A stretch of 64,000 nt of DNA, from IMG/VR virus record IMGVR_UViG_3300047564_001818. One strand, 5' to 3'. Both the position numbers and the translations under genes were made by a program. The stretch comes from a virus. Its lineage: Duplodnaviria; Caudoviricetes. This document shows, piece by piece, positions 58,283 through 59,376 of the stretch. Under the pieces are notes generated by a model that saw only the letters and a list, made by a program, of their open reading frames with translations, had not been told where the DNA came from and made no database searches. The first letter of the stretch is position 1. Each line of letters begins with the position of its first letter.

Positions 58283-59152
58283 ATGGTAGATTTTAACCCA
58301 GACAACTACGAAGCCAATCCTCTGAAGAAGTATTTCAGACAACCTAAAGTCTATGTTACACTGCCTAGCAAGGGTAAGTTCTACCCACAGGGCGCAGTTG
58401 AAATGCCAGAAAACGGAGAACTGCCAATCTATCCTATGACTGCTAAAGACGAACTTACTATGAAAACTCCTGACGCACTGCTGAATGGACAAGCCACAGT
58501 GAGTGTTATTCAAAGCTGTGTGCCTGCTATTAAAAATGCTTGGGCTATGCCTAGCATTGATCTTGACGCACTGTTGATAGCTATTCGTATTGCTACCTAT
58601 GGCGATACTATGGAACTGTCTGTTAAGGTTCCAGGTATAGGCGAAGAAAGAAAATTTGATGTTGATCTGCGCAAGCTGTTAAACAAACTGGTCACAGTAG
58701 AATACGAATCAGAAATACAAATCAACAACATGACAGTAAGTGTACGTCCTTTAGTCTATAAAGAATTTACTGAAGCTAGTCTTAAAACATTTGAAGAACA
58801 GCGTATATTTGCATTGGTTAACAATGAAACTATATCAGAACAAGAAAAGCTAGCAAAGTTTAACGAAAGCTTTGCAAAGTTAACTGACTTAACAGTTAAG
58901 ACTATGAGTAAATGTGTTTCAAAAATTACTGTAAGCGATACAGTGGTTACTAATCAAAATCACATTGATGAGTTTATACAAAACGCTGACAAAGCTTTTT
59001 ATAAAGCTGTAGTTGAACATCTTGATCTACAAAAAGAAAAGTTTCAGATAGAACCTATTCAAGTACACAGCTCAGAAGAAGACATAGCCAAAGGTGCTCC
59101 TACAAATTGGACTGTGCCTATTACATTTGATCAGTCAAATTTTTTCGCATAA
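58283..59152 (+). CDS. gp26: Baseplate hub assembly protein gp26-like (probable tail assembly chaperone)
   Basis: NPLKKYFRQPKVYVTLPSKGKFY, PMTAKDE, DLDALLIAIRIATYG; ends NFFA*. Confidence 0.8.
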   Translation: MVDFNPDNYEANPLKKYFRQPKVYVTLPSKGKFYPQGAVEMPENGELPIYPMTAKDELTMKTPDALLNGQATVSVIQSCVPAIKNAWAMPSIDLDALLIAIRIATYGDTMELSVKVPGIGEERKFDVDLRKLLNKLVTVEYESEIQINNMTVSVRPLVYKEFTEASLKTFEEQRIFALVNNETISEQEKLAKFNESFAKLTDLTVKTMSKCVSKITVSDTVVTNQNHIDEFIQNADKAFYKAVVEHLDLQKEKFQIEPIQVHSSEEDIAKGAPTNWTVPITFDQSNFFA

Positions 59153-59182
59153 GGATCTTGCCTCTAAGTGTAGGTGAGATCC
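59140..59182 (+). promoter_or_regulatory. Programmed -1 ribosomal frameshift signal
   Basis: Heptamer T TTT TTC (59140-59146), spacer GCATAA, stem GGATCTTGCCT/AGGTGAGATCC; the -1 frame is open into the next ORF. Confidence 0.8.
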
Positions 59183-59376
59183 TCGAAGAAGTAAAACGCT
59201 ACGAAGGTGAACAAAAGCAGTTTAAATCAGAACTGCTTAAGATCTGCTGGTACATGCGTGGCGGCGTTACTATTGAAGATGCTTATTCTCTATCATTTGA
59301 AGATAGACTGTTGATAGGCGATATAATCAAAGAGAACTTAGAAACTACGAAGAAAAGCGGAATGCCTTTCTTTTAA
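59146..59376 (+). CDS. gp51-like ORF, probably expressed as the -1 frameshift extension of gp26
   Basis: Only a TTG at 59158 with an SD too close; the -1 frame reads FFRIRILPLSVGEILEE...CWYMRGG... Confidence 0.7.
   Translation, partial: RIRILPLSVGEILEEVKRYEGEQKQFKSELLKICWYMRGGVTIEDAYSLSFEDRLLIGDIIKENLETTKKSGMPFF

Follow-up and report, generated by a model that had tools for sequence, protein, structure and literature searches.

Do two overlapping reading frames in a jumbo phage genome represent two genes, or one gene with a short and a long product? We asked this of a 64,000-nucleotide (nt) stretch of DNA, referred to here as the window, from an uncultured freshwater jumbo phage (IMG/VR record IMGVR_UViG_3300047564_001818; the sequencing runs containing the window are freshwater metagenomes). 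A gp26-like baseplate-hub assembly gene in the window, ORF1, is overlapped at its 3′ end by a second open reading frame (ORF) in the -1 frame. Sequence comparison indicates that a programmed -1 ribosomal frameshift at the heptamer T_TTT_TTC very probably joins ORF1 to this second frame, which would then encode a C-terminal extension. This is the best reading of the locus because the heptamer and the -1 peptide are conserved, the -1 frame has no conserved start, the extension domain occurs in frame elsewhere, and five complete relatives contain a single PF12322 gene each. The mechanism is of a known kind, a -1 frameshift yielding short and long forms of a chaperone, and none of the papers searched describes it in a gp26-type PF12322 gene.

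The 3′ end of ORF1 and the -1 reading frame

ORF1 lies on the plus strand at 58283-59152, as do all features described below unless stated otherwise, and its zero frame encodes the short form, a protein of 289 amino acids (aa) according to the ORF list and its translation. The product matched the Pfam family PF12322 (T4_baseplate) with E 1.3e-12 and 48.4 bits, against a gathering cut-off of 24.5, and the PHROGs family phrog_150 ("baseplate hub") with E 3.7e-15. By these profile matches ORF1 is a gp26/gp51-family (PF12322) protein, and it is the sole PF12322 copy in the window. The gene ends with AAT TTT TTC GCA TAA, a sequence that contains a slippery heptamer, T_TTT_TTC (59140-59146), in the X_XXY_YYZ register of ORF1 and one codon ahead of the stop. 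Next come a 6-nt spacer, GCATAA (59147-59152), which includes the zero-frame stop TAA (59150-59152), and a stem-loop (59153-59182) that is a candidate frameshift stimulator, with 59153-59163 pairing with 59172-59182 to give 11 base pairs, two of them G-U, and an 8-nt loop. The -1 frame has no stop from 59131, across the heptamer, until the stop codon at 59374-59376 (78 codons), and the predicted extension (59146-59376), a helical C-terminal domain of the long form, comprises 76 codons after the slip and then the stop. The predicted fusion is therefore 288 + 76 = 364 aa. An earlier note on this DNA had described the end of ORF1, the heptamer, the spacer, the 11-bp stem, the open -1 frame and the sizes of 364 and 289 aa, and each of these was confirmed in the sequence.

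A heptamer near the end of a gene is not in itself rare in the window, where the 62 ORFs of at least 100 aa contain 8 in-frame slippery heptamers within their last 20 codons. A long -1 extension, 74 codons beyond the stop, is found only after the heptamers of ORF1, and the other heptamers in the window are followed by at most 12 codons. ORF1 itself accounts for more than one such site, as a second heptamer, A_AAT_TTT (59137-59143), overlaps the first and is a possible minor slip site. Given that the -1 frame is open from 59131, a slip there would yield the junction ...SKFFR, compared with ...SNFFR from T_TTT_TTC. This second site is less conserved than T_TTT_TTC and is missing from sequences with CAT or AGT as the preceding codon.

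In the mechanism that we propose, most ribosomes would stay in frame 0 as far as the TAA at 59150 and release the 289-aa short form. A fraction would move back one base on U_UUU_UUC (59140-59146), where both tRNA-Phe could re-pair to UUU, a step probably aided by the stem-loop 6 nt downstream. The slipped ribosomes would read 76 further codons in the -1 frame and produce the 364-aa long form, with the same body and a predicted four-helix C-terminal domain.

Conservation of the slip site and of -1 coding

The locus had no match among phage records by blastn. By tblastn, the closest relatives of ORF1 were in the jumbo myoviruses Phosso, Atu_ph07, PA5oct and Serratia phage BF with its Erwinia relatives, followed by PBECO4/121Q-like phages, CBB/GAP32 and XaC1, all at about 28-34% identity. 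Aquatic homologs of ORF1 number in the thousands in the protein collection, some of them on contigs of 335-357 kilobases (kb). Our comparison set consisted of 25 loci on viral contigs and 37 in metagenomes, with 38-75% protein identity; 39 distinct sequences were drawn from 63 loci, and seven isolated jumbo phage genomes at about 30% identity (PBECO4, CBB, XaC1, Phosso, PA5oct, Serratia BF and Atu_ph07) were added.

TTTTTT was present in the same register in 39/39 distinct sequences, with C as the next base except for an A in one (TTTTTTA), and the heptamer was also found in 7/7 isolate genomes. The alignment columns from -1 to +7 have zero entropy (0.17 at +6), and flanking third codon positions have 1.2-1.9 bits. 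The frame-0 stop falls 1 or 4 codons after the heptamer in the 39 metagenome sequences and 1-9 codons after it in the isolates, and the -1 ORF spans 78 codons in the distinct sequences (77 in one) and 72-79 codons in the isolates. The -1 peptide is conserved starting at the first residue after the slip, with F1, F2 and R3 invariant and a hydrophobic/basic pattern following, whereas the frame-0 tail beyond the slip site varies in sequence and length among relatives. The one sequence with the altered heptamer (L028) uses AGA for the invariant Arg, which changes the frame-0 Phe to Leu. Because this sequence keeps the Arg at the cost of a frame-0 substitution, selection acts on the -1 frame. The conservation of T_TTT_TTC and of the open -1 frame in relatives, on which the earlier note's proposal turned, was thus found in all 39 distinct sequences and the seven isolates, and the frameshift itself is strongly supported by this conservation of site and -1 coding.

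A frame break within a homopolymer, in a family where other lineages have in-frame long forms, could suggest a sequencing error in one long ORF or a recently broken gene. However, the run is exactly six T in the 39 distinct sequences, which come from many independent assemblies, and in the seven finished isolate genomes, and the in-frame lineages have a different junction with a single F and no T run. A frame-0 stop follows soon after the run throughout (within 1-4 codons in the metagenome sequences and 1-9 in the isolates), and the extension is under clear purifying selection. On the sequences compared, error or decay is effectively refuted by conservation and would retain only a negligible probability.

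The conserved T6 homopolymer also raises the possibility of transcriptional slippage, where the polymerase adds one U on the run and a minority of mRNAs encodes the same long form. This would be hard to tell apart at the protein level, as reasoning from the sequence indicates that one inserted U yields an identical N-F-F-R junction, and the homopolymer must be counted against a ribosomal event. For efficient slippage by a polymerase, a run of six is nevertheless short, with about 9 residues or more in the known bacterial cases. Furthermore, the run never exceeds six T in the 39 distinct sequences, it always stands in the tandem-slippage register with T as the preceding wobble base, and in the window clade it is followed by a stem at ribosomal spacing. 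We consider polymerase slippage to be quite unlikely and favor a slip of the ribosome.

The RNA downstream of the heptamer is consistent with a stimulated ribosomal slip in the window and its near relatives. The 6-nt spacing of the window stem is canonical, within the 5-9 nt typical of stimulatory structures. In RNAfold, the 54 nt that follow the heptamer gave -17.5 kcal/mol with z = -3.66, and 1 of 200 shuffles was as stable. In a near clade of 13 distinct sequences with at least 59% identity, 84% of stem cells are paired, and changes on both sides occurred at 4 pairs, for example at pair 5, where C-G becomes U-A, and at pair 9, where C-G becomes G-C, a count matched by 16 of 500 shuffles. 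PA5oct and Atu_ph07 have strong downstream hairpins of their own. Two points about the RNA weigh against the frameshift as proposed: the stem is not conserved family-wide, with several clades lacking significant downstream structure and RNAalifold of 19 diverse sequences finding no consensus structure, and covariation support is modest even within the near clade. The stem described in the earlier note is accordingly real and paired in the near clade, but it is not a feature of the whole family. As judged from these alignments, the heptamer is common to all lineages and the stimulator is particular to individual ones.

The remaining alternative is that the two frames are separate genes, and that a small ORF starting at TTG 59158-59160, perhaps by termination-reinitiation after the TAA at 59150, gives a free 72-aa protein. 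This TTG is the first canonical start of the -1 frame, at codon 6 and 5 nt past the ORF1 stop, and the sequence AAGGA (59151-59155) lies 2 nt upstream of it, which speaks for initiation at this codon and against a frameshift. The spacing of 2 nt, given as about 3 nt in the earlier note, is poor for a Shine-Dalgarno sequence. The same note took the TTG to be the only start of the -1 ORF, which is wrong, as in-frame ATGs follow later. Family-wide, the -1 frame lacks a conserved start, and the interval from the preceding -1 stop up to the heptamer contains no start at all. Relatives have their first -1 frame start as early as codon 3 or as late as codon 38, and several lineages have it only within the invariant WYMRGG motif. 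The residues between the heptamer and every candidate start are conserved.

Existing annotation can be read in favor of separate genes, since the records of PBECO4, CBB, XaC1, BF, Phosso and Atu_ph07 call the extension as a separate small hypothetical protein. These calls have varied starts, with small-ORF gene calls beginning at no fewer than 10 different profile positions, and in PA5oct (L002:3852-4076) no coding sequence is annotated over the extension. In addition, the in-frame lineages described below have the extension domain covalently joined to the PF12322 body. Independent translation of the small ORF is therefore very unlikely. The public records of the seven isolated jumbo phages (L001-L003, L068-L071) do not annotate the frameshift; if the ribosomal slip is accepted, those of PA5oct, the PBECO4/121Q-like phages, CBB, BF, XaC1, Atu_ph07 and Phosso need correcting.

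The extension domain and its relation to T4 gp26 and gp51

The earlier note had called the -1 ORF gp51-like. It is not an independent gp51-like gene but a C-terminal extension that converts the short form of ORF1 into a long one, and the same domain is found in frame on long PF12322 proteins. When the 78-aa extension alone was compared with Pfam and PHROGs, nothing significant was found. Searching 1.84 billion representatives with a profile built from the -1 peptide recovered 491 proteins at E <= 1e-3, and 19 of the best 150 matches are proteins of 319-351 aa that contain the domain in frame as their last 77 residues. The N-terminal parts of these 19 proteins belong to PF12322 and phrog_150, and the junction in the in-frame long forms reads ...F-R-N-K-I-L..., with a single F and no T run. 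In protein P0231 the PF12322 profile ends (position 218/219) at F255, which is the slip position. The AlphaFold model of a long-form homolog predicts that the extension region folds as four helices. A further protein, P0013 (383 aa), was considered as a natural fusion and rejected; its last ~94 residues repeat the preceding C-terminal frame-0 segment exactly, and it is probably an assembly artefact.

A third arrangement is present on the metagenome contig L030, which has PF12322 genes in tandem, a short one (294 aa, no cysteines) followed by a long one, P0237 (346 aa). P0237 carries the extension domain (E 7e-23 to the profile) and is only 30% identical to the short gene of the same contig. 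The short gene ends with TCT TTT TTC AAT GAC TAA (L030:1680-1710) and its -1 frame stops at once, while the long form is a separate in-frame gene whose start overlaps the stop of the short gene (TAATG). The L030 short form resembles ORF1 and the long form shares the extension, the difference from the window being that the long form has its own gene. From its sequence and position, the TTT TTC run is a relic slippery heptamer in a two-gene arrangement. Five complete genomes of the frameshift type (a 338-kb uncultured relative, Atu_ph07, PA5oct, PBECO4 and CBB) have one PF12322 match each, and therefore the long form would need recoding in these phages.

We then compared both forms with their T4 counterparts. 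The T4 paralogs gp26 (208 aa) and gp51 (249 aa) are full-length members of PF12322. T4 gp26 ends 2 residues past the end of the PF12322 profile (...K-E-F-F-E-L-L), so that its C-terminus is at the position equivalent to the window slip site and also bears an FF motif, and gp51 continues for 48 more residues. When the gp51 family was aligned by hhalign with the full-length long forms, both frameshift and in-frame, the alignment was collinear across the junction, with probability 82% and E 1e-5. The extension alone aligned weakly with the last 29 residues of gp51 (P 2.9e-4, probability 40%, and P 6e-3). When the 19 in-frame long forms were searched against PHROGs, 19/19 matched phrog_150 and none matched phrog_634, the gp51 C-terminal family, so HMMER did not connect them to the gp51 tail. 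In the AlphaFold models of a long-form homolog and a gp51 homolog, with predicted local distance difference test scores (pLDDT) of 90.9 and 91.6, respectively, the second beta-hairpin is followed by a short, a long, a short and a long helix, the second helix being 14 residues shorter in gp51. The fold matches of the long-form homolog in BFVD are T4-like baseplate hub assembly proteins, with E down to 3e-17. Homology of the extension to the gp51 tail is probable but unproven.

Two differences separate the window clade from these relatives. T4 has two divergent paralogous genes and no frameshift, and T4 gene 26 is without a slippery site at its end and is directly followed by gene 25. The window clade is also without the CxxC...CxxC pattern, as exemplified by ORF1, which has 1 cysteine and no CxxC. 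These cysteines do not vary in the in-frame long forms or in the gp51 family, and T4 gp26 has similar cysteine pairs. This distribution of residues suggests that the window clade has lost a split zinc ribbon.

As a separate observation, T4 gene 26 contains an annotated internal in-frame start, gene 26' (L029:5803-6090), which gives a 95-aa C-terminal product. T4 too makes more than one product from the PF12322 family, in this case by another route.

A proposed tail chaperone logic and the neighboring genes

We next considered what the two forms might do. T4 gp26 and gp51 are listed as hub assembly chaperones, and gp51 is needed for assembly and is absent from the particle (PMC3004832). In phage lambda, gpG and gpGT bind the tape measure protein and the T part recruits the tube protein (PMC5009743). 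By analogy, both forms predicted here may, like T4 gp26/gp51, be chaperones that assist assembly of the baseplate hub and tape-measure complex and do not become part of the virion. The shared body could bind the same client, the hub and tape-measure complex, with the helical extension adding a second contact, and the slip could set the ratio of short to long form. Given what T4 genetics and the example of lambda show, we infer that a chaperone function and an equivalence to T4 gp26/gp51 are likely.

In long-tailed phages, the tail chaperone genes characteristically use programmed -1 frameshifting. The locus shares with lambda G/GT and P2 E/E+E' a short and a C-terminally extended product and a -1 slip at X_XXY_YYZ a few codons before the stop, and in P2 the slip takes place on a T-run heptamer of the same type. 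As in lambda, the products would be assembly factors that act near the tape-measure protein. The protein family and the sizes differ, as ORF1 is unrelated to lambda G/GT and its forms of 289 and 364 aa compare with roughly 140 and 280 aa in lambda. The position differs as well, since ORF1 is divergent from the probable tape-measure gene whereas the lambda pair is located between the tube and tape-measure genes. The parallel with G/GT is one of logic and not of homology.

Several results count against the chaperone part of this account. ORF1 is not directly upstream of, and co-oriented with, the probable tape-measure gene. Neither ORF1 nor the extension matched Phage_TAC or any other tail-chaperone family in Pfam and PHROGs at E <= 0.01. 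The long-form model had nothing in the Protein Data Bank (PDB) at E <= 0.001 by Foldseek, and a VIA wide fold search gave only generic helical hairpins (residues ~113-195, Z <= 8.3) and no solved tail chaperone. In sequence, the extension is only weakly linked to the T4 gp51 tail. The earlier note had called the locus a lambda G/GT-type chaperone pair and had looked to tail-chaperone folds for its predicted structure. The short/long -1 frameshift logic of that proposal stands, but it has gained no chaperone family, the PDB searches with the long-form model gave no solved tail chaperone, and the gene position is a divergent one.

A literature search for a frameshift in gp26-type genes or T4-type phage tails found none in the papers covered, and a paper on phage G describes an ordinary tail chaperone frameshift in a family different from PF12322. 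We tentatively suggest, with somewhat less than even confidence, that T4-type tails are covered by the near-universal two-form chaperone rule of long-tailed phages, with gp26/gp51 as the tape-measure/hub pair. Under this suggestion the frameshift would be the state in a very large and ancient jumbo/aquatic T4-related group, duplication would have given two genes in T4 and L030-type phages, and the relic heptamer of L030 would mark the transition from the frameshift to the two-gene state. The roles of T4 gp26 and gp51 have been vague for decades, and the use of the short/long trick by PF12322, a family unrelated to the lambda chaperones, suggests a hypothesis for both. If true, gp51, the long unexplained T4 "hub assembly catalyst", gains a testable role as the GT-like form. 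The finding further suggests that recoding to set a product ratio has been adopted convergently in tail assembly, and the hypothesis is directly testable in cultured phages.

The gene divergent from ORF1 is on the minus strand at 55691-58207 and encodes an 838-aa protein, a probable tail tape-measure protein, with a gap of 75 nt (58208-58282) between the two genes. The protein has Gly/Ala-rich hydrophobic stretches, and a 45-aa motif at residues 704-748 is 60% identical to a protein of Salicola phage CGphi29 that is annotated as a tape measure (E 1e-7). Its Atlas feature neighbors include tape-measure clusters. The divergent gene order is kept in PA5oct, BF, CBB and XaC1, where the syntenic counterparts carry the annotation of virion structural protein, in PA5oct with reference to electrospray ionization tandem mass spectrometry (ESI-MS/MS). 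The virion proteome table of CBB includes the neighbor CBB_251 but neither CBB_250 nor CBB_249; this was not counted as evidence, owing to uncertainty over how its numbering corresponds to the RefSeq tags. The 838-aa protein had no Pfam or PHROG family match, and BLASTP against T4 gp29 was not significant (E 0.054). Based on these sequence features, it is probably the tape-measure protein. The earlier note placed ORF1 next to and divergent from the tape-measure gene, and we confirm the divergent arrangement, with the tape-measure identity itself probable rather than proven.

Elsewhere the window encodes a T4-like structural module with baseplate wedge proteins, a gp23-like major head protein, a gp21-like protease and a gp20 portal, and it likewise encodes gp46/gp47-like nucleases. 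A stretch of about 500 nt at 60010-60520 is without ORFs and lies downstream of a SegE-type GIY-YIG nuclease gene (60807-61256) and a 105-aa ORF.

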